Positions 1 through 15,365 of a stretch of DNA of 60,772 nucleotides are shown here, piece after piece. Numbering within the stretch: position 1 is the stretch's first letter; every line of letters starts with the position of its first letter. The position numbers and the translations under genes were made by a program. Where the stretch lies: the NCBI GenBank assembly GCA_030017615.1, contig JASEIG010000003.1:1-60772 (forward strand). Direction: 5' to 3'. Source of the stretch: Patescibacteria group bacterium. Its GTDB lineage: Bacteria; Patescibacteriota; Minisyncoccia; UBA6257; UBA9933. The notes under the pieces were generated by a model that ran no database searches, was not told the DNA's origin, and worked only from the letters and a program-made list of their open reading frames with translations.

Positions 1-125
1 CTACGGCTCGGGCGTGGCGGAATTCCTCCCCCCAACCCCCTCCTTCCGTCACGCCCTCGCTCGAACTGCCCTTTTTTTCGGCGGAATTGGAGGCCGTGCC
101 AATTTCATTGGCGCGCCGCCTCAAA
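1..125 (+). repeat. GC-rich structured element, partial copy related to the 5' half of the element at 23262-23442
   Basis: GC-rich island in an AT-rich genome. cggcgg(79-84)...cgccgcc(114-120) encloses an inner hairpin ggc-cgt-gcc, the same architecture as gcggcg-gaatgt-ggcg-tgt-cgcc-...-cgccgc at 23299-23340. Also carries ggaattcct..ccccaaccc, which recurs at 5591-5625. Confidence 0.4.
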
Positions 126-128
126 ATT

Positions 129-1787
129 TTATAATTTTTTCTGCGAATTATCAAGACGCGAAAAAAGATGCGATAACAAACTTAAAGCGTCGAGACAGTC
201 TTTTTCCGTAAATAAACCAGAATCTCTCAAATCGGCAACCTCCTCGTGGTTCACGGAGTTTCTGCAACCGGAAACAACGCCCATGGATAAAAATTTTTGT
301 CCTTCTTCAATGTTGTTTATTGTGGTTGCTTGAAAATTACCACCATCGGGTTTTTTGAAGTTTTGCGCAACCTGCAACAATGTCGCGCTCGTTCCGTTGC
401 CGAAAACCTCGCCCATCATACTTGCTTCACTCGTGTTGACACTTCCCGATTTGGTCTTCACCGCATTGATATATCTTTTCGCCGCTTCTTGAAAAGCTCT
501 GTAATAATCACGCTTTTGATAATCCGCTTCCGAAGCCGTTTTTATTTCTTGGTGTAGATGTCTCCAATGATATTTTGGATATTCCGGCACGATCTCATGG
601 ATTTTTTTAACGGCTTCTTGATGTGTTTCTTCCGGCAATTCTGAATCTTTCATGATTGTTTTGATAACCGGCTCAATTTTTGTCCGGATATCTTCCGGCA
701 ACTTACTAAACCAATCTGGAATATTGATATCCGTAACCTCGCTTAATTTTTTCTCTCTCATCTCATCTCTTTTCTTGCGCCAATCCCTTTCAAGCCAATT
801 AATCAGGCCGCGCAAATGTGTCCGCAACTTTTGCATTTCTTCGTGCCCCCAATTTAAAGATTGTCTGTTGGTAGCGATGACATCATCATCGAGTTCGTCT
901 ATAAAATCAACTTCAAGCCACCCGGTTAGATAAGAGAAAAAGTGGCTTGATGTGCTGTCCGAGAAATATTCGGGCAAATTCACCAACTTTTTTCTTGAAA
1001 ACAAAATAATTCCGCGCATGTTGGTATTGGGCGGTATAGGTTTCTTTGCCGCCATCAAATGTCCGACGATTTGATTCGTCTTATCGTAGTCGTCGGAATA
1101 TTCGGAATCGTCGGGAATTTTCCATTCAACCTCTTTTTCCAAACCAGCGTATCGTCTTTCGTTGGAAACAATAATCGGCTTATCGGAATTATGTTTTACT
1201 AAAACTTCAAAACCGGAATCGATGATAAACATTTTTGAAAGATTGTTCGCAAGGTTTTCGGGAGAAAAATCGCTTTCTCTTTGTATTTTTTTTAAAATTA
1301 TTTTGGTCCCGTGTTCGTCCGCCGAACAATTTTTGTCTTTCTTGATAATTTGCGGTTTATAATCTTTCTTGCTCGTTTTTATGTCTTCCCATTTCATCGC
1401 AAACGAGTTTTCTTTTCCGTCTTTTTTTGTGGCAATTTCAATTTCATGAGCGATACCGAAAAACGACAATTTGCCCAATCCTTTTTTACCGATTATTTTT
1501 CTGCCCTTAAGCGTGGTTTCCAATTTGTCTTCGGCTCTGCGATTTCTTCCAATTCTGAGAAATTTGTCGTTGATCTCGTCAAACGACATGCCCATTCCGT
1601 CGTCCTCGATCATTATTTCCTTTTCGGTTGCCGAGTCGTTTAATGTCAAAACAACATGTTCCGCGTCAGCGTCGTGCGCATTGCCTATCAATTCCGTTAA
1701 TACCGGCGGCAAAGTCGAATACATGCGGACACCGAGGTGTTCTATCGTATTCGGGTCAAATGTCATTTTTAATTCTTTTTGCGGCAT
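129..1787 (-). CDS. GHKL (HATPase_c_3 / MORC-like) ATPase fused to a C-terminal Ymh/TIGR02391-type HEPN domain
   Basis: Bergerat-fold motifs ELIGNAHDA (N box), DDGMGM (G1) and GKKGLGKLSFFG (G2). The C-terminal ~120 aa end in GVVSGCRNSVNHEE (Rx4H HEPN motif) followed by a helical tail. Last gene of the R-M operon, 14 nt after the MTase gene. Confidence 0.75.
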   Translation of the reverse strand: MPQKELKMTFDPNTIEHLGVRMYSTLPPVLTELIGNAHDADAEHVVLTLNDSATEKEIMIEDDGMGMSFDEINDKFLRIGRNRRAEDKLETTLKGRKIIGKKGLGKLSFFGIAHEIEIATKKDGKENSFAMKWEDIKTSKKDYKPQIIKKDKNCSADEHGTKIILKKIQRESDFSPENLANNLSKMFIIDSGFEVLVKHNSDKPIIVSNERRYAGLEKEVEWKIPDDSEYSDDYDKTNQIVGHLMAAKKPIPPNTNMRGIILFSRKKLVNLPEYFSDSTSSHFFSYLTGWLEVDFIDELDDDVIATNRQSLNWGHEEMQKLRTHLRGLINWLERDWRKKRDEMREKKLSEVTDINIPDWFSKLPEDIRTKIEPVIKTIMKDSELPEETHQEAVKKIHEIVPEYPKYHWRHLHQEIKTASEADYQKRDYYRAFQEAAKRYINAVKTKSGSVNTSEASMMGEVFGNGTSATLLQVAQNFKKPDGGNFQATTINNIEEGQKFLSMGVVSGCRNSVNHEEVADLRDSGLFTEKDCLDALSLLSHLFSRLDNSQKKL

Positions 1788-1801
1788 AGTTAAAATTATA
1801 T

Positions 1802-2848
1802 TTATTTGGCGAACATTACTATTTGCTTGCCGATTATTTTGGCAAACTTCGGAGGCACAGCGTTTCCTATCATTTTTGCAATGGAGGCCACGCTCGTGCC
1901 GATAAATTCGTAATTTTCAGGAAAAGTTTGCAAAGTCGCTCCTTCTCGCAAAGAAATCGCCCTGTTTTCCTCTGGATGAGCAAAGCGCCCGTTACTAATG
2001 CTGAAAAATTTTGTGGTGATTGTCGGAGATGGTTTGTCCCACCACATGCGTCCGTAAGTATCATAAAATTTTTTCTCGCCGGAAGCGTAGCAGGCCAATT
2101 GAAGAGTTTTTCTATTTTGCCAGCTCGATCTGTTTCCGCCGTTTTTTTCAGTCATTTGCAACCGCTCCAAATTTTTTTTGCTTAAGTTCGAAGCGGTGTG
2201 CAAAAATTTCGTTTTATCTTTGACACCGGCTTTTATCTTTGGAAATCCGTTTTTTATTCCAAGCACATCTCTGACGGTAATTTTTTTACCGGTTGGTTCA
2301 GGCAAAGAAATCCCCGAAACACGCGAAGCCAACAATGTAAAACGTCTTCTCCTTTGAGGCACGCCGTATAAAGACATATCCGTAACGCCATGCGCTACAT
2401 TATATCCGAACGATTCCAGAGCAACGATGAAATTTCCCATTGGACTTTCTTTTTTTGAAGATATGCCGGGCACGTTTTCCACCACAACAAAGCCCGGCCT
2501 GAAATATTCGACAAACTTTTGAAAATCCAGAATCAAATTTTTTGTTTTCCTTGATTTTTCTTTGCTTGTTCGGATAATGCTCCAAAATTGACAGGGAGCG
2601 CAACCAGCAAAAATCATATTGTCGTCGTTTTTTTTGATATTCAAATCACGCTTCAAATCGTCTGGCGAATATTTTGTTATGTCTTTTTTTAGAAAAATCG
2701 CTCCTCTATTGTTTTTTTCAAAAGTTTCTTTGCACGAGCCGTCGTTATCAATGCCGACCAATACCGAAATACCGGCAGCCATAAGGCCGTTAGTAAGCCC
2801 GCCTGCACCGGAAAAAAAATCTATGGCTTTGAGACGATTTCTTATCAT
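1802..2848 (-). CDS. DNA (cytosine-5)-methyltransferase
   Basis: Motif I DFFSGAGGLTNG, motif IV GCAPCQFWS, motif VI ENV, motif VIII QRRRRF, motif X GNAVPP. Confidence 0.9.
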   Translation of the reverse strand: MIRNRLKAIDFFSGAGGLTNGLMAAGISVLVGIDNDGSCKETFEKNNRGAIFLKKDITKYSPDDLKRDLNIKKNDDNMIFAGCAPCQFWSIIRTSKEKSRKTKNLILDFQKFVEYFRPGFVVVENVPGISSKKESPMGNFIVALESFGYNVAHGVTDMSLYGVPQRRRRFTLLASRVSGISLPEPTGKKITVRDVLGIKNGFPKIKAGVKDKTKFLHTASNLSKKNLERLQMTEKNGGNRSSWQNRKTLQLACYASGEKKFYDTYGRMWWDKPSPTITTKFFSISNGRFAHPEENRAISLREGATLQTFPENYEFIGTSVASIAKMIGNAVPPKFAKIIGKQIVMFAK

Positions 2849-2858
2849 ATACTTTTTA

Positions 2859-3254
2859 TTATTTTATTCGTTGAAAATCAAATTTAAAATCTTTTTTCTT
2901 TAAGTCGTGTTCCCAAATTCTTATGATTTTCCAATTCATTTTTTTGTAATGTCGATTGACCAATTTGTCCCGCTGCTTATTACCATCTATTTTCGCTTTC
3001 CAAAACTTCTGTCTTGTCGCGGGGAAACGGCAATGTTTCTTGCAACCGTGCCAAAAACAGGAATCAATAAAAATTACAGTTTCATGTTTTTTCAAAACAA
3101 CATCCGGTTTGCCAAAATATTTTGTTGGATTTTTTCTGTACCTAAATCCTTTTTGCCACAACTCTTTCCTAAATGCGATTTCTATTTTTGTGTCTTTACT
3201 TCTAACGGCACTCATTATTTCGCTTCGTTTCTTTTTAGTAAAAACATCCGTCAT
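2859..3254 (-). CDS. vsr: Very short patch repair endonuclease (T:G mismatch endonuclease)
   Basis: KKKRSEIMSAVRSKDTKIE...GKPDVV...IFIDSCFWHGC...ATRQKFWKAKI..N..RD, collinear with the Vsr family. Lies between two C5-MTase genes. Confidence 0.85.
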   Translation of the reverse strand: MTDVFTKKKRSEIMSAVRSKDTKIEIAFRKELWQKGFRYRKNPTKYFGKPDVVLKKHETVIFIDSCFWHGCKKHCRFPATRQKFWKAKIDGNKQRDKLVNRHYKKMNWKIIRIWEHDLKKKDFKFDFQRIK

Positions 3255-3258
3255 AAGT

Positions 3259-4215
3259 TTAAAATTTCAATGATTGTTGAACGGTCGGCCCGTTGAAAGC
3301 AATCATTTTCCCGGATTGTTTATCGTTTGTATATTCCGCAATACATCTCGCAACGAATTCCGCTAATTTTACCGGCACGGCATTGCCGATCATTTGTTCT
3401 AAATCGGTCTTTTTGCCTTCCCAAACGAACTTTTTTGGAAATGTTTGCACCATTGCTCTTTCCATGGTGGTAAGAGGTCGAACTTTTCCATTGATTGGAG
3501 ACGAATCATTTGCATGTCCATTATAACCTTTTGGGATTGGTCTATTAACCCCCCTTATAGTCGGACTTGGTTCGTCTACGCTGAAAATCGCTCTACGACT
3601 ATAATTTCTTGGATGTCTGTAATAATGCTCGGTATCAAGGGTGTTGCCAAAATAATCCCTGACGGTCATAGGTTTTTCTGATTTATTTTTTTGAAAATAA
3701 TATTCTAAAATATGATCTTCGCCACCCAGCTCTCCGAACATAATAAATCTTTTTCTTGCTTGAGGAACACCGCAATAACTCGCTTCCAGTATTTGATAAG
3801 ATAATCCGTAGCCGGAATCTTTGAAAATTTTTACCGCCTCTTTCAATCTGCGACTTTTGACAATGCGGCCAACATTTTCCATTAAAAAAAACTTTGGCTT
3901 CACTTTTGATATTATTTGAGCATACGCCACAGTTAAATCAGCTCTTCCCAATTCCTCATTTCTTTTACCGGCACTTGAAAAATCTTGGCAAGGCGGCCCA
4001 CCAATGATTATGTCTGGTTTGTATTCGGCGATTTTTTTATGGCTTCTGATGTCGCTTAAGTCCAAATTGATAACATCGTGATCAAAATTTTTTTTGTAGA
4101 TATTTATAGTCGGTTCCCAATTATCAAAAGCTGCAACCACGGAATAACCCGCCTGCATAAAGCCGAGCGAAAGACCGCCGCAACCAGAAAATAAATCTAC
4201 AACTTTGTATTTCAT
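3259..4215 (-). CDS. DNA (cytosine-5)-methyltransferase (second copy, divergent)
   Basis: Motif I DLFSGCGGLSLG, motif IV GGPPCQDFSSAG, ENV, QARKRFI, GNAVPVKL. Confidence 0.9.
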   Translation of the reverse strand: MKYKVVDLFSGCGGLSLGFMQAGYSVVAAFDNWEPTINIYKKNFDHDVINLDLSDIRSHKKIAEYKPDIIIGGPPCQDFSSAGKRNEELGRADLTVAYAQIISKVKPKFFLMENVGRIVKSRRLKEAVKIFKDSGYGLSYQILEASYCGVPQARKRFIMFGELGGEDHILEYYFQKNKSEKPMTVRDYFGNTLDTEHYYRHPRNYSRRAIFSVDEPSPTIRGVNRPIPKGYNGHANDSSPINGKVRPLTTMERAMVQTFPKKFVWEGKKTDLEQMIGNAVPVKLAEFVARCIAEYTNDKQSGKMIAFNGPTVQQSLKF

Positions 4216-4223
4216 AAACTTAT

Positions 4224-5288
4224 TTAATCAAATAACCCTGGCGTGCCCAAAATTACGGAATCAAGTCGCCTTTCTGGGCTAAGCAGATTTTGGCCGCCGC
4301 CAAGAATAATGTTTTTGACCTCTTGTTTTTTAATCCTTGGCATCGTTAATTCTTTACATTTCATAAACGGATAAGACACTCGACCGCTGACAGCAAAGGC
4401 TTTATCATTTTTGGTATTATATGAAAGCTCGTCAATAACTTTTTTATGGTTGACTTTGCCGTCACTAGAGTGATCCAAAAGCATTTTGGCAAGCCAAACG
4501 ACGGATCTTGTTTGTCTGGTTATTTTGTCGTTATCTTTTCTAAGTTCGCCCTTAACAACTTTCAAGAATAATTGCGCGAAAGCAAAATCAGACCAAATAA
4601 AAACATCAAATGCGTTGTCGCTTAACATTTGCGATTTGCCGTTTGTTTTCCAAATAGGTTGTAAAATCAATGGAGTTTGTTTTTCCAATCTGTCGGACAA
4701 AATTTTATCTATCAGTTGGCCCATTAAAGGCAAATATGGAACGATATTTGCCCCGTGCGTCCAATCGGATATTTTGTTAAGCGGTTTTAAGATGTTTTTG
4801 AAAAATTTTCTGTCTTCTTCCAATGACAAGATAATACTCAAGGCCATATAAACTATGGTGTCGGGGCGAACAACGATTTCACAGCCAAATTTATCGTCGG
4901 TTAAACGGCAAGTTGAATTATCAGGCAAAGCAGTCAATTTTATTTCTATCCCTTTAAGACAATTTCCGTTTTTCGAGTTTATCGTTACCAAATCTATCCT
5001 GGGCAAATTATTTACAACAAGTTTTTGAAACGGCGAATAATCACTTTCAAACGAGAAAAATAAATTTGGATCGTCATATTTTAATCCCAGCAATTCATTT
5101 GGATCCAAATAATCATGCAACACTTCCGAGCTTCCGTTTAATTTAAGATATTTCAATTTCAGATTTCTGCTCGCCATATAACAAACAAGCGAAGCGGGAA
5201 AAGACGAATTAAATTGATTCTTTCCCCATGTTTCTTTTTGGGTAAAATCTCGGTTTGAATTTGTTATTCCAAATAAACTTGGTTTCAT
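4224..5288 (-). CDS. Putative type II restriction endonuclease (PD-(D/E)xK); family not identifiable by eye
   Basis: Sits between the C-protein-like HTH gene and the MTase genes. Candidate catalytic motif PRIDLV-x13-EIKL (D...ExK). No other recognisable domain. Confidence 0.5.
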   Translation of the reverse strand: MKPSLFGITNSNRDFTQKETWGKNQFNSSFPASLVCYMASRNLKLKYLKLNGSSEVLHDYLDPNELLGLKYDDPNLFFSFESDYSPFQKLVVNNLPRIDLVTINSKNGNCLKGIEIKLTALPDNSTCRLTDDKFGCEIVVRPDTIVYMALSIILSLEEDRKFFKNILKPLNKISDWTHGANIVPYLPLMGQLIDKILSDRLEKQTPLILQPIWKTNGKSQMLSDNAFDVFIWSDFAFAQLFLKVVKGELRKDNDKITRQTRSVVWLAKMLLDHSSDGKVNHKKVIDELSYNTKNDKAFAVSGRVSYPFMKCKELTMPRIKKQEVKNIILGGGQNLLSPERRLDSVILGTPGLFD

Positions 5289-5292
5289 AAAA

Positions 5293-5487
5293 TTATTTTA
5301 TTAAATCTTCAATGGGAACATTTAACGCCTTGGCGATTTTTTTAAGCGTATCGACTGTCGGGTTCTGCTGTTTGCCCGCCTCTATATTGATTATCGTATT
5401 ATTGGAAACATCGGCAAGCCGCGCCAGTTTTTCCTGCGACAAGCCCAGTTTTTCTCTTAATCGCTTTATTTTACTTGACTCTACCAT
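5293..5487 (-). CDS. XRE-family HTH protein (R-M controller / C-protein-like)
   Basis: 64 aa. LGLSQEKLARLADVSNNTIINIEAG is a classic HTH_3 pattern. First gene of the R-M operon, 4 nt upstream of the REase candidate. Confidence 0.75.
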   Translation of the reverse strand: MVESSKIKRLREKLGLSQEKLARLADVSNNTIINIEAGKQQNPTVDTLKKIAKALNVPIEDLIK

Positions 5488-5505
5488 ATTTGAATAGTAA
5501 TATTA

Positions 5506-5520
5506 AATTGTGGTATAATT
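5506..5520 (+). promoter_or_regulatory. Extended -10 promoter AATTGTGGTATAATT, half of an inverted repeat with 5542-5555
   Basis: 15-mer identical to the one 8 nt upstream of eno (49698-49712). ATTGTGGT (5507-5514) is mirrored by ACCACAAT (5542-5549), giving face-to-face promoter-like or operator-like sites between the two HTH genes. Confidence 0.4.
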
Positions 5521-5586
5521 AGTATATGTTCAAACTTCGCAACCACAATATAATATTACCAAAATATTTGGAAATAGTAAAGAAAA

Positions 5587-5654
5587 AAGGGAGTTCCTTG
5601 TCGTTGCCCTTGCCCCAACCCACCCGTGCGCGGGCAACGACAAGGAATTCCCTT
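5587..5654. repeat. 23-bp stem hairpin (1 mismatch, 22-nt GC-rich loop), related to the GC-rich repeat family
   Basis: aagggagttccttgtcgttgccc (5587-5609) pairs with gggcaacgacaaggaattccctt (5632-5654). The left arm cttgtcgttgccc resembles cttgccgttgcgc at 23277-23289. Confidence 0.6.
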
Positions 5655-5761
5655 TTGCTTGAATAAGTATTTTGAAATTTAGTATTATTGTAATTGATGA
5701 AAGGTAAAAGATACTTTTTAACCTATACAATATAGTATAATAGTATATCCTGTTATAGGCT

Positions 5762-5977
5762 ATGTCAAATAATAATCCCCAGTCAAAAATCGGAAAAAAC
5801 ATTAAGAAATTGCGCCAAGATGAGGGCATCTCACAAGATCGCTTGTCCAAGCTGGCTGATTTGTCGCTTAATACCGTTGTTGCGGTAGAATCGGGCGTAA
5901 ACCCAAATCCTACCATTAAAACACTGACCAAAATTGCCAAAGCGTTAGAAGTCGGCGTTGATGATTTGATCAAATAA
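5762..5977 (+). CDS. XRE-family HTH protein, paralogue of 5293-5487
   Basis: 71 aa, ISQDRLSKLADLSLNTVVAVESG. The C-terminal half aligns with the other HTH (NPT(V/I).TL.KIAKAL.V...DLIK). Stop codon lies 4 nt before the P-type ATPase start. Confidence 0.75.
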   Translation: MSNNNPQSKIGKNIKKLRQDEGISQDRLSKLADLSLNTVVAVESGVNPNPTIKTLTKIAKALEVGVDDLIK

Positions 5978-5981
5978 TTTT

Positions 5982-8666
5982 ATGATGCAACAACTTTTAT
6001 GGCACACCAAAACAATTCCAGAGATTCTCAATACGCTCCACTCGCATGAACACGGCTTAACTAAAAAAGAAGCGAAGTACCGCCTTAGAGAATACGGCCC
6101 CAATAAATTGCCGGAAGGCAAGGTAGACAGCTTGTCCATTATTTTTTTTCGCCAATTCCAAAGCCCGTTGATCTATATCCTTCTTGCGGCAAGCCTGATT
6201 GTTTTTGCGATGAAAGAAGTGATTGACGGCGGCATTATTCTTTTTGTTCTTTTATTCAACGCCGTTGTTGGGACGATTCAAGAAGGAAAAGCTCAAAACA
6301 CCCTTTTGGTGTTGAAGAAATTCGTGGAGACAAATGCCACCGTGCTTCGAGATGACAAAGAGCTTATCATCCCCGATTCAGAAGTGATACCGGGAGATGT
6401 TCTTGTATTACTGGAAGGCGATAAGGTGCCGGCTGACGGTAGAATCGTTATTTCTCATAATCTCAAGATAGATGAAGCGTCTTTGACCGGTGAATCTGAA
6501 CCGATGCATAAAATCGCCGAAGTTTTAAAACAACCTGATCTTCCGACTGCGGAGCAGAAAAACATGGTTTTCAAAGGCACGCATATTGTTGCCGGAAGCG
6601 GCAAAGCAGTTGTGGTGGGCACCGGGCTTAACACCACTGTCGGCAAGATCGCCAAAGAAATCGCGGCGATTGACACGGAAATACCGCTGAAAGCCAATAT
6701 CCGTTATCTCTCGCGTCTTATTATCGTCGCTGTCGCAAGTATCAGCGTCTTGCTCTTCTCGCTCGGCATTGTGCTTGGAAAATCTTTCAAGGAAATGTTT
6801 ACTACGGTGGTTTCCCTTTCAGTTTCTATTATTCCCGAAGGATTACCTATTGTAGTTACGCTTGTGCTCGCCACAGGTGTGTGGAGAATGTCAAAGCGCA
6901 ATGCGCTTGTGAAGAAATTGCAAGCGGTTGAAGCCTTGGGACAAGCGCGCGTAATTGCGGTGGACAAAACTGGAACTATTACCAAAAACGAACTCGTGAT
7001 TCAACGAGTATATGTTGACGGCAATTTTTTTGAAATAGGCGGTGTTGGCTATGAACCAAAAGGAGATATTCATCTTGGAGAGAACATTATTGATCCCCTC
7101 AATCATTCTGAACTTCTTTTTGCCGGCAAAATTGCCGCTTTCTGCGCCAATGCCCATGCCGCCTATTATCCAGAAAATAAAAAGTGGCAAGTATTTGGCG
7201 ATCCCACCGAAGCGGCGCTTGCGGTATTTTCCGAAAAAATAGGTTTTCGCAAAGATGACTTAGAGCGCGAATCTCCCAAAATAGCGGAAGTCCCGTTTGA
7301 TTACAAAACAAAATATCATGTAACCGCGCATAGCGTTGACGGACAAGTGTTACTCACTGTAGTCGGCGCGCCAGAAGGTGTGCTGGGATTATCTTCAAAA
7401 AGATGGGGACAAAATGCTCTTCATCAGCTTTCTAAAAAAGACAAAGAGAATCTGGAGTCCCTATTCTTGGAGATGTCGCAAGAAGGACTCCGCGTATTGG
7501 CTCTGGCAATTAAAGAGAACGCGCCAAAAATCATCGGCCAAGAAGACATTCGCGATCTTGCTTTTGTCGGGTTTGTGGGCATGAAAGACGCGCTCCGCCC
7601 GGAAGTTAAAGACGTAATGCAAAGAGCGGCTTCAGCCAGTATTCGTGTAGTTATGATTACCGGAGATCATAAACTTACCGCTCAAGCCATCGCCAAAGAA
7701 GCAGAAATATATCGCGACGGAGACGAAACGCTTACAGGTTTTGACATCGATTCGATTTCTGATGAAGAGCTGTCTCAAAAACTTGACAAGGTTTCTGTGT
7801 TCGCGAGGGTAACGCCGGAACATAAACTACGCATCATCAATGCCTACCGCAGACGGGGCGAGGTGGTGGCTATGACTGGAGACGGCGTGAATGACGCGCC
7901 GTCGCTTGTGGCGGCGGACCTCGGCGTGGCGATGGGAAAAATTGGCACCGAAGTCGCCAAAGAAGCCTCTGATATCGTGCTCTTGGATGATAACTTCGGA
8001 AACATTGTTTCAGCGGTGGAAGAAGGCCGAAGCATTTACAAAACGATCAAAAAAGTCATCCTCTACTTATTTTCAACGAGTGTTGGCGAAGTGCTCACTA
8101 TTGCCGGAGCATTGTTTCTTGGCTATCCACTCCCTATTTTGGCGGCGCAAATTATCTGGCTAAACTTTGTCACCGACGGATTCCTGGATGTGGCGCTTGC
8201 CATGGAGCCAAAAGAAGAAGGGTTGTTGCGAGGCAATTTTGAACGGCCGAAAAAGTATCTTGTTGACAAACTCATGGCGCAACGGATGTTTGTAATGGCT
8301 GTTCCGATGATGATCGGGACCCTATTCCTTTTCAAAGATTATTATGAAATCGATTTAGTAAAGGCTTGGACGATGTCGTTGACGACACTCGCGGTATTTC
8401 AGTGGTTTAACGCCTGGAACTGCCGGCATGAATCAAAATCCATATTCCAGATGAATCCATTTTCCAATAAATTCTTGGTCGGAGCGACCGCGATTATCGT
8501 CTTTTTGCAGATGCTTGCGATTTATAATCCCCTCATGCAAAAAATCCTCCATACCGCAGAGATTTCGCTCTCCGAATGGATGCTTATTATTCCCGTGGCG
8601 GCCTCCATTGTTCTTGTCGAGGAAATAAGAAAATTCTTTTATCGAAGAAAAGTTACGACATTATAA
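5982..8666 (+). CDS. Cation-transporting P-type ATPase (P2, Ca2+-ATPase-like)
   Basis: DKTGTITKN phosphorylation site, MITGDHKLTA, TGDGVNDAPSL hinge, N-terminal cation_ATPase_N-like segment, about 10 TM segments. Confidence 0.9.
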   Translation: MMQQLLWHTKTIPEILNTLHSHEHGLTKKEAKYRLREYGPNKLPEGKVDSLSIIFFRQFQSPLIYILLAASLIVFAMKEVIDGGIILFVLLFNAVVGTIQEGKAQNTLLVLKKFVETNATVLRDDKELIIPDSEVIPGDVLVLLEGDKVPADGRIVISHNLKIDEASLTGESEPMHKIAEVLKQPDLPTAEQKNMVFKGTHIVAGSGKAVVVGTGLNTTVGKIAKEIAAIDTEIPLKANIRYLSRLIIVAVASISVLLFSLGIVLGKSFKEMFTTVVSLSVSIIPEGLPIVVTLVLATGVWRMSKRNALVKKLQAVEALGQARVIAVDKTGTITKNELVIQRVYVDGNFFEIGGVGYEPKGDIHLGENIIDPLNHSELLFAGKIAAFCANAHAAYYPENKKWQVFGDPTEAALAVFSEKIGFRKDDLERESPKIAEVPFDYKTKYHVTAHSVDGQVLLTVVGAPEGVLGLSSKRWGQNALHQLSKKDKENLESLFLEMSQEGLRVLALAIKENAPKIIGQEDIRDLAFVGFVGMKDALRPEVKDVMQRAASASIRVVMITGDHKLTAQAIAKEAEIYRDGDETLTGFDIDSISDEELSQKLDKVSVFARVTPEHKLRIINAYRRRGEVVAMTGDGVNDAPSLVAADLGVAMGKIGTEVAKEASDIVLLDDNFGNIVSAVEEGRSIYKTIKKVILYLFSTSVGEVLTIAGALFLGYPLPILAAQIIWLNFVTDGFLDVALAMEPKEEGLLRGNFERPKKYLVDKLMAQRMFVMAVPMMIGTLFLFKDYYEIDLVKAWTMSLTTLAVFQWFNAWNCRHESKSIFQMNPFSNKFLVGATAIIVFLQMLAIYNPLMQKILHTAEISLSEWMLIIPVAASIVLVEEIRKFFYRRKVTTL

Positions 8667-8698
8667 AAAAGTTATTATTCAGGATACAATAAAATAAT

Positions 8699-9751
8699 AT
8701 GAACGACCGAAAACCACAATTGTATTTTTTGCTAGCCATTCTTGCGGGAACTTTTGTTCTGGTTTTTTTTATCTTTCGCCCCTTTTTCTATGCGCTCGCC
8801 TTAGCAATGGTTTTTGCGACCGTGTTGCAACCCGTCTATCAAAAAATAGTAGGGTTTACTCGCGGACGGCAAGGACTAGCGGCGCTAGCCACCATTTTCG
8901 TTGTTGTCGCCTTTATTTTCACCCCCCTTATATTTTTAGGAATACAAATCTTTCAAGAAGCCCAACAACTTTACTCTTTTCTCGCAGGAGGCGATGGGAA
9001 AAACACCGTTCTCAATGTTCTTAATATCCTCAATGATTTACTTAATAGCTTTCAAAATTACTTTCCCGCCACCCAAGAATTTTCCTTAAATATTGATCAA
9101 TATCTTAAACAGGGGCTAAATTGGCTACTCCAGCATCTCGGTTCTGTATTCGGGAGCTTTGCAAAAATGGCAATGAGTTCCTTTCTATTCCTTTTCACTC
9201 TTTATTATCTGCTAAAAGATGGGCAGAAATTAAAAGCGGCTATTATCGTCTTAAGCCCTCTCTCGGACGCTGATGACGAAATAATTTCTCAAAAACTAAG
9301 GATGGCGATTGACTCGGTTATGAAGGGAAATCTTTTAATCGCGCTCATTCAAGGAGTGTTGACCTCGGTGGGGTTTTCTATTTTCGGAGTTCCCAATGCG
9401 GCATTGTGGGGTAGCATTGCGACAATAGCCGCGCTAATCCCCGGTATTGGAACGATTTTAGTCCTCCTCCCGGCTATTCTATTCCTTTTCCTTAGCGGAA
9501 AAATGCTTTCTGCGGTCGGCCTTCTTTTTTGGGGAGTGACGGCGGTGGGGCTCATTGATAATTTTTTGGGCCCCAAGCTTGTTGGACGCGGCATGCAACT
9601 TCATCCTTTAATCATTCTACTATCGACCCTTGGCGGTATTGGATTTTTCGGTCCCATCGGTTTCTTGTTGGGACCGCTTACCATAAGCCTGCTTTTTGCC
9701 CTTTTGGGTATTTATTCCTCTTTGATAATAAAAGAAAAATCTGTAATGTAA
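8699..9751 (+). CDS. AI-2E family transporter (PerM/UPF0118)
   Basis: Polytopic membrane protein with the family-typical GLIDNFLGPKLVG segment. Confidence 0.75.
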   Translation: MNDRKPQLYFLLAILAGTFVLVFFIFRPFFYALALAMVFATVLQPVYQKIVGFTRGRQGLAALATIFVVVAFIFTPLIFLGIQIFQEAQQLYSFLAGGDGKNTVLNVLNILNDLLNSFQNYFPATQEFSLNIDQYLKQGLNWLLQHLGSVFGSFAKMAMSSFLFLFTLYYLLKDGQKLKAAIIVLSPLSDADDEIISQKLRMAIDSVMKGNLLIALIQGVLTSVGFSIFGVPNAALWGSIATIAALIPGIGTILVLLPAILFLFLSGKMLSAVGLLFWGVTAVGLIDNFLGPKLVGRGMQLHPLIILLSTLGGIGFFGPIGFLLGPLTISLLFALLGIYSSLIIKEKSVM

Positions 9752-9755
9752 ATCT

Positions 9756-9926
9756 ATGGTTAAAAAAACAATCGGCATTCTTTTAATCATTATCGGCCTG
9801 CTGGCTCTGGTTACGCCCTTTACGCCTGGTTCTTGGTTAATTTTCGTTGGCTTGGAATTTATTGGAATTCGAATACTATTTTGGGATAAAATAAAATTGT
9901 GGTTTCAAAAACATACTCCCCGATAA
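9756..9926 (+). CDS. Small membrane protein (PGPGW-like), below the ORF-track cutoff
   Basis: ATG at 9756, 56 aa: MVKKTIGILLIIIGLLALVTPFTPGSWLIFVGLEFIGIRILFWDKIKLWFQKHTPR. Two hydrophobic helices around a PGSW turn. Confidence 0.45.
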   Translation: MVKKTIGILLIIIGLLALVTPFTPGSWLIFVGLEFIGIRILFWDKIKLWFQKHTPR

Positions 9927-10140
9927 ACAAAGTAAAATCAAAAGAATTGTTTTTATCGCCGCCATTATTGTAAAAAACAGAAAATTCTTTTAAAATTCTC
10001 TTAATGCCCGGTAATATTGTCTTAATTTTATCGTCAAAGCGATAAGAGTCGCCGGGCAAGCTAACACTGTTAAAATAATTAATCCGCTTTAAACGGAAAT
10101 TAAGTTAAAATCTTAATTCATTAAAGCGATATTATCGGAA

Positions 10141-11154
10141 ATGGAAAGAAGGGGAATAGAAATTTCATGGACTTCGTTATGGCGGATTTTTTTAATCCTG
10201 ATTCTTGTAGTCGGTCTTTATTACACGCGATATATTTTAGTCGTTCTCGCTCTCGCCATAGTGATATCGTCTGCTCTTGACACGCCTTTAAATTTTCTTG
10301 AGAGAAAAAGAATTCCGAGATTGTTGGGAATCATTTTTATATTTATTGCGTTTATTTCCATATTGTTTTTCTTGTTATACACCGTGATTCCCATAACGAT
10401 TATTGAATTCAAGGACCTGTTTAATAATTTGGATAAAATTGAATCGTCTTTGGGAGGATTTTTTGGGATATCTAAAATCACCGAAAAAATTGAAATCAGC
10501 TTAAACGACGTAAGCAGTGCGATTTTCAGCGGCGAATTTTCCATCATAAATCTTTTGCCGAAAGTTTTTGAAAATGCCGTTTTGCTTGTTGCCACGATTG
10601 TAATTTCTTTTTATATGGCTCTGTATAGAAACGGAATTGAAAATTTTTTAAAAGCTATTTTGCCGCTTTCTTATGAACACCAATTTATTGATATATTTCA
10701 CAGGTCAAGAAGAAAAATAGGAAAATGGCTTGAGGGTCAGATATTGCTCAGTCTTATAATCGGCGTTGGAACCGCCATCGGGTTAAAATTATTGGGAGTG
10801 AATTACGGTCTTGTTCTCGGAGTGCTTGCGGGAATTTTTGAAATCATTCCGTTTATCGGACCTGTTGTGGCGGGAGGTCTGGCTTTCTTAGTCGCCGCTT
10901 CTCAATCTCTGATGTTGGGAGTTTACGTCATAATATTTTTTGTTGTTCTTCAACAAATTGAAGCCCACATACTTGTTCCGGTTGTTATGAAAAAAACCAC
11001 CGGAATCCATCCGGTTATTGTTGTTCTTTCTATTTTGGCGGGATCTCAAATAGCCGGATTTATTGGAGCTATTTTAGCAATACCTTTTGTGGTTGTTATC
11101 GGCGAATTTGTTGAAGATTACGCCGCCAGAAAATACCGCCAGCCAACCCTGTAA
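10141..11154 (+). CDS. AI-2E family transporter (second paralogue)
   Basis: Polytopic; VLQQIEAHILVPVVMKK matches the family signature region. Confidence 0.75.
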   Translation: MERRGIEISWTSLWRIFLILILVVGLYYTRYILVVLALAIVISSALDTPLNFLERKRIPRLLGIIFIFIAFISILFFLLYTVIPITIIEFKDLFNNLDKIESSLGGFFGISKITEKIEISLNDVSSAIFSGEFSIINLLPKVFENAVLLVATIVISFYMALYRNGIENFLKAILPLSYEHQFIDIFHRSRRKIGKWLEGQILLSLIIGVGTAIGLKLLGVNYGLVLGVLAGIFEIIPFIGPVVAGGLAFLVAASQSLMLGVYVIIFFVVLQQIEAHILVPVVMKKTTGIHPVIVVLSILAGSQIAGFIGAILAIPFVVVIGEFVEDYAARKYRQPTL

Positions 11155-11156
11155 AA

Positions 11157-12620
11157 ATGGATAAATCTTACATTACAACGTCAATCGCGTACGCGAACGC
11201 TTCGCCGCACATCGGTTTTGCTCTTGAAAGCGTGCAAGCTGATGTTGTTGCCAGATATCGCCGCCAAAAAAACGGCGAAGTGTTTTTTTTGACTGGAACC
11301 GATGAGCACGGAACGAAAATTTATCGGGCCGCGCACGAAAAAAATCTTCCGCCGCAAAAATTCGTTGATGAAATTGCGGACGAATTTAAAAATCTTAAAA
11401 ATATTTTAAATTTGGATTGGGATGGTTTCATTCGCACGACCGACAAAGAAAATCATTGGCCGGCTGTTGAAAAAATATGGAAAAAATTGCGGGAAAACGG
11501 CGACATAGAAAAAAGAATATTTAAAGGATTATATTGTGTCGGATGCGAAGATTTTATCACAGAAAAAGATTTAGTTGACGGAAAATGCCCCATTCACCAA
11601 AAAGAACCGGAAGTTATCGAAGAAGAAAATTATTTTTTCAAACTTTCTAAATACGCCGAAGAATTAAAATCGCGAATTAAAAAGGATAAATTAAAAATAA
11701 TTCCGGAAACAAGAAAAAATGAAACACTCGCTTTTTTAAAAGAAAGATTAAGGGATGTAAGCGTTTCGCGTTCAAGAGATAAACTGCCATGGGGGATTCC
11801 GGTCCCCGGAGACGAAAGTCAGGTTATTTATGTATGGATAGACGCGCTGATTAATTATTTATCGGGTCTTGGTTATCCCGAATCGGACAATTTTAAAAAA
11901 TTTTGGTCGGAAAATTCCGAAATCATGCACTTTATCGGAAAAGATATTTTTAGATTTCACACAATAATCTGGCCCGCGATACTTTTGTCGGTTAACCTTC
12001 CTTTGCCTAAAAAAATTTTCGTTCATGGATTTATAACCGTAAATGGGCAAAAGATATCCAAATCTGACGGTAATGTTGTTGATCCGAAAAATTTAGTCGG
12101 AAAATACGGAACCGATGCGGTTCGTTACTTCTTGCTTCGCGAAATTTCTCCTTTTGAAGACGGAGATTTCAGCAAGGAAAAATTCAGAGAAAGATATAAC
12201 GGCGAACTTGCCAATGGGTTGGGAAATTTTGCGGCTCGGGTGCTAACCCTCGCCTCGCGCAACGCTAATCTACAGATACATAACAATACTATAAATGAAG
12301 AAATAAAAGAAAAAATAGATTTTACGGAAAAAATAACAGAGCAGAAAATCAATGAATTTAAATTTAATGAAGCTCTTTCCGTAATTTGGGATTTGATTAA
12401 ATACGGAGACAATTATGTCAACCAAACCAAGCTCTGGGAAAATACTGAAAATAAATCAGCTGAAATCGCCAATCTGATCTTTCTTCTGCAAGCGGTCAGC
12501 CAGATGATATTGCCTTTTCTTCCGGAAACCTCAGAAAAAATATCAAAAAACATCAAAATTTCGGGAGATAATTTGGAAGTTTCCAAACCTGAAAATCTTT
12601 TCCCTCGTTTTAACGAATAG
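11157..12620 (+). CDS. metG: Methionine--tRNA ligase (short form)
   Basis: Class I motifs SPHIGF (HIGH) and KISKS (KMSKS), Zn-knuckle CVGCEDF...CPIH. Confidence 0.9.
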   Translation: MDKSYITTSIAYANASPHIGFALESVQADVVARYRRQKNGEVFFLTGTDEHGTKIYRAAHEKNLPPQKFVDEIADEFKNLKNILNLDWDGFIRTTDKENHWPAVEKIWKKLRENGDIEKRIFKGLYCVGCEDFITEKDLVDGKCPIHQKEPEVIEEENYFFKLSKYAEELKSRIKKDKLKIIPETRKNETLAFLKERLRDVSVSRSRDKLPWGIPVPGDESQVIYVWIDALINYLSGLGYPESDNFKKFWSENSEIMHFIGKDIFRFHTIIWPAILLSVNLPLPKKIFVHGFITVNGQKISKSDGNVVDPKNLVGKYGTDAVRYFLLREISPFEDGDFSKEKFRERYNGELANGLGNFAARVLTLASRNANLQIHNNTINEEIKEKIDFTEKITEQKINEFKFNEALSVIWDLIKYGDNYVNQTKLWENTENKSAEIANLIFLLQAVSQMILPFLPETSEKISKNIKISGDNLEVSKPENLFPRFNE

Positions 12621-12643
12621 TCAGGCCCATAATACTTACTATA

Positions 12644-13429
12644 ATGCCTAAATTGATTGACGCGCATATTCATGTTCAATTTCCGCAATTTAATAAAGAT
12701 CGCGATGAAATCATAAAAAGGGCTTTTGATAACGAAATTTGGATAATAAATGCCGGAGCTGACTATAAATCGTCCGTAAAAGCCGTTGAACTTTCTCAAA
12801 AATATCCAAACGGCGTTTTTGCTACTGTTGGCCGGCACCCGACGGCAAAAGAAACTTATGATTTCCAATATAACAAGTTTTTAAATTTGGCAGAAAATAA
12901 AAAAGTCGTGGCTATCGGCGAATGCGGTCTTGATTACTACTATAATCCGCAGACTAACGCTGAAAATATTGAAAATCAAAAAAGATTATTTATAGAACAT
13001 ATAAAATTGGCAAAAGAAGTAAAAAAACCTCTAATGATTCATTGCAGAGAAGCATTTCCCGATTTAATCAAAATCCTAATTGCTAATTACCAATTACTAA
13101 TTGCCGATCGTCCCGGTATTTTCCATTTTTTCACCGGCGCTTTAAATGATGCGAAGAAACTTTTAGAAATGGGATTTTATTTTACTTTTGGCGGTTTAAT
13201 CACTTTCAATCGTGAATTTGATGAAATAATAAAACATATTCCGATGGACAGGATTTTAACCGAAACCGACGCGCCTTATGTCGCGCCCGCTCCTTATCGG
13301 GGACAAAGAAACGAGCCGGCTTATGTGATTGAAGTTGCAAAAAAAATGGCAGAAATAAAAAACATTTCTTTTGAAGAAATTGCCAAAATCACCATTGAAA
13401 ACGCCAAGCGAATTTTTAATATTTTCTGA
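12644..13429 (+). CDS. TatD-family metal-dependent hydrolase
   Basis: DAHIHV start, GECGLDY, HCR, HFFTG and ETDAPY motifs. Confidence 0.85.
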   Translation: MPKLIDAHIHVQFPQFNKDRDEIIKRAFDNEIWIINAGADYKSSVKAVELSQKYPNGVFATVGRHPTAKETYDFQYNKFLNLAENKKVVAIGECGLDYYYNPQTNAENIENQKRLFIEHIKLAKEVKKPLMIHCREAFPDLIKILIANYQLLIADRPGIFHFFTGALNDAKKLLEMGFYFTFGGLITFNREFDEIIKHIPMDRILTETDAPYVAPAPYRGQRNEPAYVIEVAKKMAEIKNISFEEIAKITIENAKRIFNIF

Positions 13430-13468
13430 CAGGGTTCACAAAACGCATTTTATAAGCTAATATTTTTT

Positions 13469-13765
13469 ATGGCTTTAATAGACCAAAAAACTATCAAATA
13501 TCTTGCCGGTTTGGCTCGAATTGAAATCAAGCCCGAAGAAGAAACCAAACTTAAAAAAGATTTGGAGGAAATTTTGCGATATTTTGAACAGCTTGAAGAA
13601 GTTGATACCGAAGGAATTAAGCCGATGACCGGGGGAACTTTACAGAAAAATATTTTTCGGAACGATAAACTGTCTGTTAAACAAAAAAGTAATCCCGAAG
13701 AGCTTATAAAAGCTTTTCCTGATAAAGAAGGAAGATTTCTTAAAATACCGCCTGTTTTTGAATAA
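13469..13765 (+). CDS. gatC: Asp/Glu-tRNA(Asn/Gln) amidotransferase subunit C
   Basis: 98 aa; IKYLAGLARIEIKPEEE...LEEILRYFEQLEEVDT is the typical GatC pattern. Lies upstream of gatA. Confidence 0.85.
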   Translation: MALIDQKTIKYLAGLARIEIKPEEETKLKKDLEEILRYFEQLEEVDTEGIKPMTGGTLQKNIFRNDKLSVKQKSNPEELIKAFPDKEGRFLKIPPVFE

Positions 13766-13803
13766 TTTACTGAAAAATATAAAAATTTATTAATAACGAA
13801 CGG

Positions 13804-13840
13804 TTTTTGCATACTATCGCGCATGTATAGTATGCAAAAA
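13804..13840. other. Perfect 14-bp hairpin between gatC and gatA
   Basis: tttttgcatactat (13804-13817) and atagtatgcaaaaa (13827-13840), 9-nt GC-rich loop cgcgcatgt. No U-tract beyond the stem. Confidence 0.6.
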
Positions 13841-13886
13841 TATCCGAACAATACTCGTTTTTTATCAAAATAAACAAAATTAATTT

Positions 13887-15365
13887 ATGGAATTTATTCA
13901 TAATTTAACCATAAAAAAAATTCATCAAGGTTTAATAAACAGGGAATTTTCTGCCGTCCATATTGTAAATGAATTTTTCAATCATATTGAAAAAAAAGAC
14001 GAAAGCATCGGCGCTTACCTGTATCTCGCCAAAGATGACGCTTATAAGCAAGCAAGCAATGTTGATGCCGTTTTAGAGAATGGCGAAAATGTAAGTTTGT
14101 TGGCGGGGATTCCTTTGGCGATTAAAGACAATATCCTGATAAAAAATTTGCCGGCCACAGCCGCTTCTAAAATTTTGGAAAATTACAATGCGTCTTACGA
14201 TGCCGGTGTGATTTCCAAACTTAAAAAAGCCGGCGCGATTTTTTTAGGCAAAACGAATATGGACGAATTTGCGATGGGCTCGTCCACGGAAAATTCCGCG
14301 TTTAAAACCACAAAAAATCCTTATGATTTAGAAAAAGTTCCGGGCGGTTCATCGGGCGGTTCGGCGGCCGCAGTCGGAGCGAATATGGCGGCCGTGGCTT
14401 TAGGTTCTGACACTGGCGGTTCAATCAGGCAACCCGCCAGTTTTTGCGGAGTTGTCGGATTAAAGCCAACATATGGCGCGGTTTCAAGATCGGGATTAAT
14501 GTCTATGGCTTCCAGCTTGGATCAAATTGGGCCGCTTGCAAAAACAGTTGAAGACGCCGCTGTTTTGTTTCAAGTTATCGGGGGAAAAGACGAATTTGAT
14601 TCAACGAGCGTGGAAATTTTATACGGAGATGAAATCACGAATCCAAAACCGGATGAGATAAAAAAACTAAAAATCGGATTGCCAAAGGAATATTTTATTG
14701 AAGGTTTGGACGACCGCACTAAAACTGAAATCAATCTGGCAATTCAAAAATTAAAAAGCTTGGGGTTTGAAATAAGGGATATCAGTTTACCGCATACGAA
14801 ATATGCGTTATCCGCTTATTATATTATTATGACAGCCGAAGTAAGTTCCAATTTGGCAAGATATGACGGCGTTAGATATGCAAGAATAGCAAACAACAAC
14901 TCCGGCAGAATCGTCGGAACCGACAACTTATTGGATATTTACAAAAAACAAAAAGGAATGGGGTTTGGTCATGAAGCCAGAAGAAGAATTATTTTAGGAA
15001 CTTACGTTTTGTCCGCCGGATATTATGACGCATATTACGCGAAGGCGCAAAAAGTCAGGAATTTAATAAAACAAGATTTTGATAACTCTTTTAAAGAGGT
15101 TGACGTTGTTTTGACTCCCGTTTCTCCGACAACCGCTTTTAAAATTGGCGAAAAAACAAACGATCCTCTGCAAATGTATCTTTCCGATATTTTCACCATT
15201 CCCGTTAATCTTGCCGGCTTGCCGGGCATCTCTATTCCCGTTAGAAAATTTGGAGGATTTAAAGATCTCCCCGTCGGTTTTCAGCTGATCGGGAAACATT
15301 TCAAGGAAGCGGATATTTTAGGCATTGGACAATTATATGAACAACTGGATTCAAAAAATTATTGA
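13887..15365 (+). CDS. gatA: Asp/Glu-tRNA(Asn/Gln) amidotransferase subunit A
   Basis: Amidase signature GGSSGGSAAAV...GSDTGGSIRQPA. Confidence 0.9.
   Translation: MEFIHNLTIKKIHQGLINREFSAVHIVNEFFNHIEKKDESIGAYLYLAKDDAYKQASNVDAVLENGENVSLLAGIPLAIKDNILIKNLPATAASKILENYNASYDAGVISKLKKAGAIFLGKTNMDEFAMGSSTENSAFKTTKNPYDLEKVPGGSSGGSAAAVGANMAAVALGSDTGGSIRQPASFCGVVGLKPTYGAVSRSGLMSMASSLDQIGPLAKTVEDAAVLFQVIGGKDEFDSTSVEILYGDEITNPKPDEIKKLKIGLPKEYFIEGLDDRTKTEINLAIQKLKSLGFEIRDISLPHTKYALSAYYIIMTAEVSSNLARYDGVRYARIANNNSGRIVGTDNLLDIYKKQKGMGFGHEARRRIILGTYVLSAGYYDAYYAKAQKVRNLIKQDFDNSFKEVDVVLTPVSPTTAFKIGEKTNDPLQMYLSDIFTIPVNLAGLPGISIPVRKFGGFKDLPVGFQLIGKHFKEADILGIGQLYEQLDSKNY

Follow-up and report, generated by a model that had tools for sequence, protein, structure and literature searches.

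A six-gene block at the end of a Patescibacteria contig is probably a stack of two Type II restriction-modification cassettes

The window analysed here is the complete 60,772-bp contig JASEIG010000003.1 from a Patescibacteria group bacterium, and our subject is a block of six genes at its left end, all on the minus strand between positions 129 and 5487. The first gene of the block encodes a C-like helix-turn-helix (HTH) protein of 64 aa (5293-5487). It is followed by genes for a Type II restriction endonuclease (REase) of the BsaHI/HgiDI/HgiGI/HindVP family and the PD-(D/E)xK type, here called R (4224-5288, 354 aa); a C5 cytosine methyltransferase (MTase) of the M.BsaHI/M.HgiDI type, M1 (3259-4215, 318 aa); a Vsr T:G mismatch nicking endonuclease (2859-3254, 131 aa); a second C5 cytosine MTase, M2 (1802-2848, 348 aa); and GHKL-Ymh (129-1787, 552 aa), in which a GHKL ATPase domain is followed by a predicted S5-like middle domain, a helical linker and a C-terminal HEPN domain of the Ymh type. 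The open reading frame (ORF) listing gives exactly these coordinates, with gaps of 4, 8, 4, 10 and 14 nt, as had a preliminary description of the DNA, and profile matches bear out the domain calls made there (C-like HTH, REase, two C5 MTases, Vsr, and a fusion of GHKL and HEPN). Since all six match their families strongly, they are genuine genes and not chance ORFs. The same description took them for a single system going beyond a textbook Type II restriction-modification (R-M) system. We find two cassettes in tandem instead, and consider it likely that the block is a mobile stack of two Type II 5-methylcytosine (5mC) R-M cassettes, fused at a shared vsr gene and placed behind one C-type regulator.

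The assignment of R is based on a match to the full length of the Pfam profile RE_HindVP (PF09519; 3.3e-141, 470.5 bits against a gathering cut-off of 25), with residues 21-353 covering profile positions 1-332 of 332, and on a match to the PADLOC model REase_II (2.5e-125). A sequence search of the PDB with R returned no match. The RE_HindVP family includes the characterised enzymes BsaHI, HgiDI and HgiGI, which have the site GR/CGYC, and the putative enzyme HindVP (PMC2413257; PMC3424549). The motifs of the BsaHI family are WGKNQF, (Q/K)(T/N)DKAF(A/S) and QxxxSPERRFD (PMC2413257); the signatures in R are WGKNQF at 21, KNDKAFA at 293 and QNLLSPERRLD at 333, with one change, F to L, from the published motif. 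An ExK motif occurs as E115-I-K117, after D98, its position being judged by spacing relative to E130-V-K132 of BsaHI and not by alignment. HindVP is inactive on lambda DNA, which has been attributed to its missing ExK motif, and a Crocosphaera homologue without ExK is likewise inactive on this substrate (PMC2413257). Because R has the ExK motif whose lack is blamed for the inactivity of HindVP, we predict that R is active, and its family membership suggests GR/CGYC as its site.

M1 matches the Pfam family DNA_methylase (6.4e-71) and the PADLOC model MTase_II PDLC03270 (3e-147, across 2-303 of 309 profile positions). It carries all of the C5 motifs, with the TL dipeptide at T219-I220 and R208 eleven residues upstream; M.BsaHI has been described with a TL motif (TI217) in a similar arrangement. 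In related loci M1 invariably comes after the R homologue, and from what is known of the family it would methylate the central C of GRCGYC. The pair thus resembles the BsaHI, HgiDI, HgiGI and HindVP systems in the full-length family match of R, its signatures and ExK motif, and the neighbouring C5 methylase of the M.BsaHI type. The difference is that a C-type HTH gene precedes the pair here, while Vsr and a second R-M cassette follow it.

R and M1 also occur apart from the second half of the block. The contigs L089-L091 carry R (94% identity), M1 (89%) and Vsr without M2 or the GHKL gene, and further loci (L093-L103) carry R and M1 with or without an HTH or Vsr gene. In L089-L091 the gene after vsr is that of an OLD-family ATPase; on L089 (9432-11288) it overlaps the end of vsr, and its product matches AAA_15/AAA_21 and, weakly, TOPRIM.

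The N-terminus of GHKL-Ymh matches HATPase_c_3 (2.7e-23, 83 bits, cut-off 25; residues 27-161) and its C-terminus matches Hypoth_Ymh PF09509 (4.8e-14, 52.7 bits, cut-off 25; residues 409-545). The protein scores 54.7 bits against TIGR02391 (cut-off 39.45). Across 25 homologues of 62-88% identity, residues E32, N36, D62, G64, G66, G100-G105, R509 and H514 are invariant; these include the Bergerat motif D62xGxG66 and the HEPN motif R509-x4-H514 (Rx4H). The top Foldseek matches of an AlphaFold2 model of the protein (pLDDT, the predicted local distance difference test score, 79.8) were the N and M domains of Hsp90, TRAP1 and MORC2/3 (E ~1e-12, 360-440 columns), and in the model a predicted S5-like transducer domain follows GHKL. 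The analogy with MutL, MORC, Hsp90 and VcSduA makes the protein a probable ATP-driven dimeric clamp that would gate its C-terminal nuclease.

This GHKL-HEPN protein is not an unexplained addition to an R-M system, its architecture having already been described. R.NmeAIP, which represents a putative REase family in REBASE, has a GHKL N-terminus and a Hypoth_Ymh C-terminus, and R.HgiDII likewise has an N-terminal GHKL domain (Orlowski and Bujnicki 2008, PMC2441816). The paraMORC GHKL ATPases were found in R-M operons with C5 methylases and Vsr, and an analogy with MutL was drawn (Iyer et al. 2008). Ymh was later described as a HEPN family fused to paraMORCs in R-M neighbourhoods, with PrrC and RloC as proposed analogues (Anantharaman et al. 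2013, PMC3710099).

The closest precedent by description is the NmeAI system of Neisseria meningitidis, which consists of M, R and V genes and in which M.NmeAI makes C5mCGG (PMC3787668, PMC4676702, PMC7973814). The second half of our block shares with NmeAI, R.NmeAIP and the paraMORC-Ymh proteins the architecture of the effector (GHKL N-terminus, Hypoth_Ymh C-terminus) and the content of C5 MTase, R and Vsr. The gene order is V-M-R here, in contrast to M-R-V in NmeAI, and the homologous proteins of the Neisseriaceae are just 43-56% identical to those of the block.

A second comparison is with the GTCGAC enzymes HgiDII and BbrUII, which have a homologous N-terminal GHKL and middle module and a C5 methylase as partner. 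Residues 7-387 of GHKL-Ymh match positions 2-407 of the 659 in the BbrUII/HgiDII REase model NF050001 with 245 bits (E 1.7e-72). This score is far under the cut-off of 550, so that GHKL-Ymh is not a member of the family and is related to it by the N-terminal module alone; the C-terminal 250 positions of HgiDII and BbrUII are replaced here by a helical linker and HEPN. VcSduA, or paraMORC3 (GHKL and DUF4263; Shedu type I-D), is similar in having a GHKL ATPase and a clamp-like middle domain that control a C-terminal nuclease. Its nuclease is of the PD-(D/E)xK type, whereas ours is HEPN, and VcSduA needs no methylase. PrrC and RloC, the proposed analogues (PMC3710099), similarly combine an NTPase domain with a C-terminal HEPN nuclease and are encoded in R-M loci. 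Theirs is an ABC-type ATPase with a complete Type I partner, whereas the block has GHKL with a lone C5 methylase. We rejected GHKL-Ymh as a member of the PrrC/RloC group on the basis of its GHKL N-domain and its constant C5 MTase partner, and treat the resemblance as an analogy only.

M2 matches the Pfam family DNA_methylase (8.6e-55) and has the FSGAGG, PCQ, ENV, QRRRR and GNAVP motifs. Its target-recognition domain (TRD) carries YGRx8TIx9GRxAH. This fits the pattern YGRx8T[LIM]x9GRx?H reported for GTCGAC methylases, a further likeness to HgiDII and BbrUII; in the related published patterns, GTCGAC MTases end in ..GRxGH and M.TspMI (CCCGGG) ends in ..GRxLH (PMC2413257). The database names of M2 relatives are generic and name no specificity. 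The M-R-V homologues in Neisseriaceae and Pasteurellaceae (L068, L077) have an M2 that is 56% identical in the core and 52-56% identical in the TRD, free of indels; the Neisseriaceae homologue has 52% TRD identity without indels. A 492-aa protein (P0195) that is 74% identical to M2 has DNA_methylase and Vsr domains, and is thus a natural methylase-Vsr fusion within the M2 family.

We surveyed 80 genomic loci with GHKL-Ymh homologues (42-86% identity) from many bacterial phyla and archaea. In 75 of the 80 a C5 methylase lies no more than 150 nt from the GHKL-Ymh gene, mostly directly upstream and on the same strand. Two of the five exceptions are truncated contigs, two have their methylase at a distance of about 1.8 kb, and in one (L016) there is none. 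A Vsr gene was found within 1.5 kb of GHKL-Ymh, on either side, in 37/80 loci, and an extra C5 MTase in 19/80. No R of the BsaHI type and no M1 was present in any of the 80. The nearest flanking ORFs of the M2/GHKL-Ymh modules fall into 132 different Pfam families and include no recurrent second REase, the commonest neighbours being OLD/AbiEii-like ATPases (11 of 130 flanking ORFs) and other methylases. Full modules occur on viral contigs of IMG/VR (L108-L112).

Because there is no recurrent second endonuclease nearby, M2 and GHKL-Ymh, with or without Vsr, form a self-contained module, which is also highly mobile. Each methylase of the block then has its own effector, and the block is therefore two cassettes in tandem: a pairing of two known kinds of Type II 5mC R-M cassette with Vsr, and not a novel six-part system. 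We infer from the linkage that GHKL-Ymh is the effector, or "R", partner restrained by M2 methylation. A Type IV (methylation-dependent) role for GHKL-Ymh was also considered and was rejected, given that the gene almost always adjoins a co-oriented methylase.

The survey also bears on the possibility that the six genes form one integrated system, with the GHKL-HEPN protein as a dormant suicide RNase like PrrC and RloC that guards the adjacent R-M enzymes and fires when a phage disables them. The invariance of the Rx4H motif fits such a role, and paraMORC-Ymh proteins have been explicitly proposed as functional analogues of PrrC and RloC (PMC3710099). M2/GHKL-Ymh is repeatedly found downstream of some other complete R-M pair and a C gene, of the BsaHI type here and of the HaeII type in L007 and L119-L125; L085-L088 pair it with an EcoRI-type methylase and GmrSD/HNH, and the extra C5 MTases in 19 loci could be read in the same way. 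The sole constant partner across the 80 genomes, however, is a methylase of the M2 type and not a complete R-M system. With flanking ORFs in so many families and no recurrent REase among them, most loci hold nothing to guard, and PrrC, which depends on a Type I partner enzyme, has an ATPase of the ABC type and not GHKL. We therefore regard the guard role as unlikely and favor two tandem cassettes.

The Vsr protein matches Pfam Vsr (5.5e-30) and TIGR00632 (122.3 bits, cut-off 97.85). It aligns with E. coli Vsr (1CW0; 4.3e-19) and keeps the PD and CFWH motifs, which contain the catalytic Asp and the zinc site. From family knowledge, it would repair T:G mismatches left by deamination of 5mC. MutL stimulates Vsr in E. 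coli, and M2, Vsr and GHKL-Ymh could accordingly be imagined as a repair module in which a MutL-like GHKL ATPase aids Vsr in very-short-patch (VSP) repair of 5mC deamination. The GHKL and S5 fold, like that of MutL, Hsp90 and MORC, would suit this role, as would the Vsr gene adjoining the pair in 37 loci and the C5 methylases and Vsr noted in MORC and paraMORC neighbourhoods, where the MutL analogy was drawn (Iyer et al. 2008). Against it, fewer than half of the loci have Vsr whereas nearly all have the methylase, and VSP repair offers no role for the invariant catalytic residues of HEPN. The N-terminal module is common to the HgiDII/BbrUII family of restriction enzymes, and the whole module is patchy in its distribution and found in defence islands and on viral contigs. 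We consider a repair module very unlikely, and return to a restriction cassette.

The vsr gene itself records how the two cassettes came together. In a sliding-window comparison its 5' end shares 92-93% identity with the L089 vsr, which lies behind R-M1, but no more than 60-67% with the L007 vsr, which lies in front of M2. At the 3' end the relationship is reversed, with 92-98% identity to the L007 gene and 57-65% to that of L089. The gene is thus chimeric and is the joint between the R-M1 side (cassette A) and the M2/GHKL-Ymh side (cassette B). The simplest reading is homologous recombination between an R-M1-V and a V-M2-R2 cassette, with the cross-over within vsr.

Related contigs show precise exchange of a cassette within a constant scaffold, which consists of C and its upstream region at one end and vsr-M2-GHKL-Ymh at the other. 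In L119-L121, 93.6% nucleotide identity to window positions 41-3236 (GHKL-Ymh, M2 and nearly all of vsr) and 91.9% identity to 5291-5609 (the C gene, operator candidate and half of a hairpin) enclose a HaeII-type M and R (Pfam DNA_methylase, RE_HaeII) in place of R-M1. The HaeII-type arrangement is present in L007 and L122-L125 as well, and the L007 ORF matches RE_HaeII at 1.5e-121. A third combination, HTH, EcoRI-type methylase, GmrSD/HNH, M2 and GHKL-Ymh, is found in L085-L088. These contigs are an unusually clean natural example of R-M cassette shuffling, with the cross-over visible in vsr. The preliminary description had proposed that the block be compared among related genomes for presence or absence as a unit, and had named the conservation of subsets only as telling against a single system; just subsets are conserved.

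The full order of six genes, with tight or overlapping junctions, does recur in four independent metagenome contigs. One of these (L081) has 89% nucleotide identity to window 65-5609, and the other three (L082, L083 and L092) have 80% identity to 123-5582. The tight or overlapping junctions of every copy make co-transcription of the six genes plausible. Spacing alone is weaker evidence for one transcript than the preliminary description implied, because tiny gaps between genes on the same strand are common in this compact genome; those at 5977/5982 (4 nt) and 11154/11157 (2 nt) are examples. A site check found no GGAGG-like Shine-Dalgarno site before any of the six genes, which is uninformative. 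A consensus scan found 23 promoter-like hexamers against 15 +/- 4.2 expected from shuffles, not clearly above chance, and terminator and promoter consensus matches inside the block were likewise not clearly above the shuffled expectation.

The C-like protein is an XRE-type HTH protein (HTH_3, 2.5e-20; PADLOC Control_protein PDLC03665, 5.7e-12), and its gene is co-directional with R and 4 nt upstream of it. Its cluster at 90% identity has 358 members, some of them on more than 100 contigs each, with named metagenome-assembled genomes of several lineages of the Candidate Phyla Radiation (CPR) and of Elusimicrobiota. A copy with 97% identity heads the HaeII-type cassette of L007.

Upstream of the C gene, on the minus strand at 5498-5558, lies a candidate operator or promoter region formed by a 17-nt inverted repeat, with arms TAATATTATATTGTGGT (5542-5558) and ACCACAATTTAATATTA (5498-5514) separated by a 27-nt spacer. 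In five copies (the window, L081, L082, L083 and L007) the arms are near-invariant, with one mismatch in L082/L083, and the spacer is variable. We take the repeat to be a candidate C-box. Type II R-M systems controlled by C proteins include PvuII, AhdI and Esp1396I. The block resembles them in that its leading gene encodes a small HTH protein, lies directly upstream of R and is preceded by a conserved palindrome; it differs in that this palindrome is unlike the canonical GACT..AGTC C-boxes, and regulation by C in the block is a prediction.

Further upstream, at 5585-5656 on the minus strand, there is a hairpin with 25-nt arms (5585-5609 and 5632-5656, 96% complementary) followed by U6. Its predicted folding energy (dG) is -45.5 kcal/mol with a z-score of -6.66, and none of 200 shuffles was equally stable. 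The hairpin is common to the window, L081, L007, L119 and L122, and is probably a terminator that would insulate the block from read-through. The 22-nt, non-palindromic loop (5610-5631) has the opposite orientation to that in L081, L119/L120 and L122, although the flanks are collinear. It looks as though the loop has been flipped via recombination between the hairpin arms.

Several features of the block and its relatives are those of a mobile element. The contig ends 128 nt past the GHKL-Ymh gene, so the left flank of the block is outside our view. In L119, L122 and L082 a sequence of 60-100 nt is present, inverted, at both block ends, and the window holds one copy of about this length, the left one, at positions 1 to ~100. 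Window 46-97 matches L119/L120 downstream of GHKL-Ymh and, inverted, upstream of C; window 1-61 matches both block ends in L122, likewise inverted; and window 6-31 has matches on either side of the L082 block. Furuta, Abe and Kobayashi reportedly described mobile R-M units with flanking inverted repeats in 2010, and the block is similar in having such repeats at its ends in related contigs and in passing between distant hosts. Many of the related contigs, that of the window included, end within a few hundred bases of the block, a pattern typical of strain-variable elements. Neither tRNA genes nor Rfam families were found in scans of the entire window, and there is therefore no tRNA integration site in view.

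Some of the related loci have further features of interest. In L122-L125 a 507-aa large serine recombinase (Resolvase and Recombinase domains) follows GHKL-Ymh, for example at L122:5993-7516, and beyond it are a gene for an SDH-type protease and two adenine/N4 methylase genes. This region looks like an integrative or prophage-like element. L082 has arms of 5,225 nt (1-5225 and 10632-15856) that are 100% reverse-complementary. These are most likely the result of a misassembly folded back at the short terminal inverted repeats of the block; a real invertible segment is the less likely explanation.

The distribution of close relatives points to recent transfer. Every one of the six block proteins has relatives of at least 90% identity on other contigs. 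At this threshold four core proteins of the window are singletons, and the best relative of the window's methionyl-tRNA synthetase (MetRS) has 64% identity. The named MetRS relatives are all from Wolfebacteria, Liptonbacteria, Gribaldobacteria, Parcubacteria or Patescibacteria, which agrees with the CPR host expected from the preliminary description. Together these values point to recent transfer of the block into a Parcubacteria-like CPR host. No exact copies of the window's R and ATPase proteins were present in the contig index. The block was also said to be the only clearly accessory one in a window of core genes, and this stands: the ~30 larger ORFs scanned elsewhere are almost all core, among them those for MetRS, GatA, TrmD, PNPase, RuvAB, PolA, enolase and ribosome recycling factor. 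Within this stretch of core genes of a Parcubacteria-like CPR organism, the block would be a mobile defence island of recent acquisition, located where the contig ends.

Two cassettes of these kinds could work together as follows. C, R and M1 would form cassette A, a system of the BsaHI/HgiDI family in which M1 would methylate the central C of GRCGYC and R, through its PD-(D/E)xK site, would cut GR/CGYC in DNA without this methylation. The C protein would bind the inverted repeat upstream of its own gene and so time the expression of R. Vsr, M2 and GHKL-Ymh would form cassette B, a system of the NmeAI type. M2 would mark host DNA at its own site, and the GHKL-S5-HEPN protein would be an ATP-dependent effector whose toxic nuclease is held off by M2. 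Vsr would nick at T:G mismatches arising from 5mC deamination and offset the mutagenic cost of two C5 methylases. The two C5 methylases and Vsr predict two 5mC motifs in the host methylome.

Some observations speak against two complete R-M cassettes under one C regulator. The closest solved relatives of the C protein are generic XRE proteins such as CylR2 and not known C proteins, and no solved C protein is among its closest PDB relatives at E <= 1e-5. All six genes are co-directional behind C, so that both methylases would need internal promoters to precede the nucleases. L016 has GHKL-Ymh and Vsr with no methylase within 8 kb. A Foldseek search with the C-terminal 240 residues of GHKL-Ymh gave no significant match (best E 1.8), although HepT/HEPN toxins headed the list. 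We know of no experiment in which any GHKL-Ymh protein cuts DNA, "R.NmeAIP" being a putative name, and HEPN domains with Rx4-6H are, to our knowledge, RNases. No segment of GHKL-Ymh co-varied with the M2 TRD (40-aa segments, 75 pairs), the maximum partial Spearman correlation being 0.14; this null result gives no sign of a DNA-reading head matched to M2 and is no strong evidence against one. Lastly, the observed and expected numbers of candidate sites in the window are 26/42.5 for GRCGYC, 238/297 for CCGG, 0/1.2 for GTCGAC and 3/5 for CCCGGG, which is not decisive.

The weak depletion is what would be expected for a recent arrival and a 60-kb sample. GRCGYC does not occur in 1-14552, and all 26 sites are further on. 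Site avoidance was dropped as a read-out of specificity, the candidate sites of the block being at most mildly depleted. Unrelated 4-bp palindromes are far more depleted, with 30 TCGA sites against 174 expected and 69 GATC sites against 177, and GGCC, ACGT, GTAC and CTAG are also low in the window. This suggests long exposure to R-M specificities other than the block's own.

The mild depletion of GRCGYC might instead mean that part of the block has decayed, leaving an orphan methylase and a dead nuclease, as in HindVP, in what is mainly a selfish or epigenetic element. There are precedents for loss of function in HindVP and the Crocosphaera homologue, which lack ExK and are inactive on lambda DNA (PMC2413257), and in one meningococcal strain in which an insertion sequence element interrupts the NmeAI restriction gene. 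In our block, however, all six ORFs have the full length expected from their profiles, the ExK, SPERR, Bergerat and Rx4H motifs are intact, and close copies keep the six frames open; a recent arrival would show weak site depletion in any case. Decay of this kind seems to us highly improbable, and we prefer two intact cassettes.

How GHKL-Ymh would act within cassette B is a separate matter. Rather than a classical Type II system that cuts DNA, the M2/GHKL-Ymh pair may be a hybrid of R-M and abortive infection, in which an ATP-driven clamp of the MORC/MutL kind scans DNA and, when it meets unmarked M2 sites, triggers the HEPN RNase; or, less expected still, the HEPN domain may itself cut DNA. 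We put this forward tentatively and regard it as rather doubtful. If either version is true, a very widespread family would act in a way that is not known from any R-M system. Thousands of GHKL-Ymh proteins are spread over bacteria, archaea and phage-like contigs, and for almost 20 years the family has been filed as "putative Type II REase". The block thus touches a biochemical question, namely the substrate of the methylase-linked GHKL-HEPN "R.NmeAIP" proteins and their control by ATP and methylation. The CPR copy of GHKL-Ymh, with its motifs intact, would be a compact test case, and the linkage in 75 of 80 loci justifies testing it.

Few other genes of the window call for comment. A second XRE HTH gene (5762-5977, plus strand, 71 aa) is divergent from the C gene. 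Its product shares 50-55% identity with C-type proteins and 42-46% with the HTH proteins that head the R-M cassettes of L085-L088 and L093/L094. A P-type ATPase gene (5982-8666, plus strand) begins 4 nt beyond it and has a G+C content of 0.46-0.47, the maximum in the window. The 71-aa protein could be an orphan C protein from an earlier cassette, or the P-type ATPase's own regulator. The sole other non-core-looking gene among the larger ORFs scanned lies at 50974-52275 on the plus strand, between the genes for enolase and phosphoglycerate mutase, and its 433-aa product contains a phage tail collar domain (5.9e-23).

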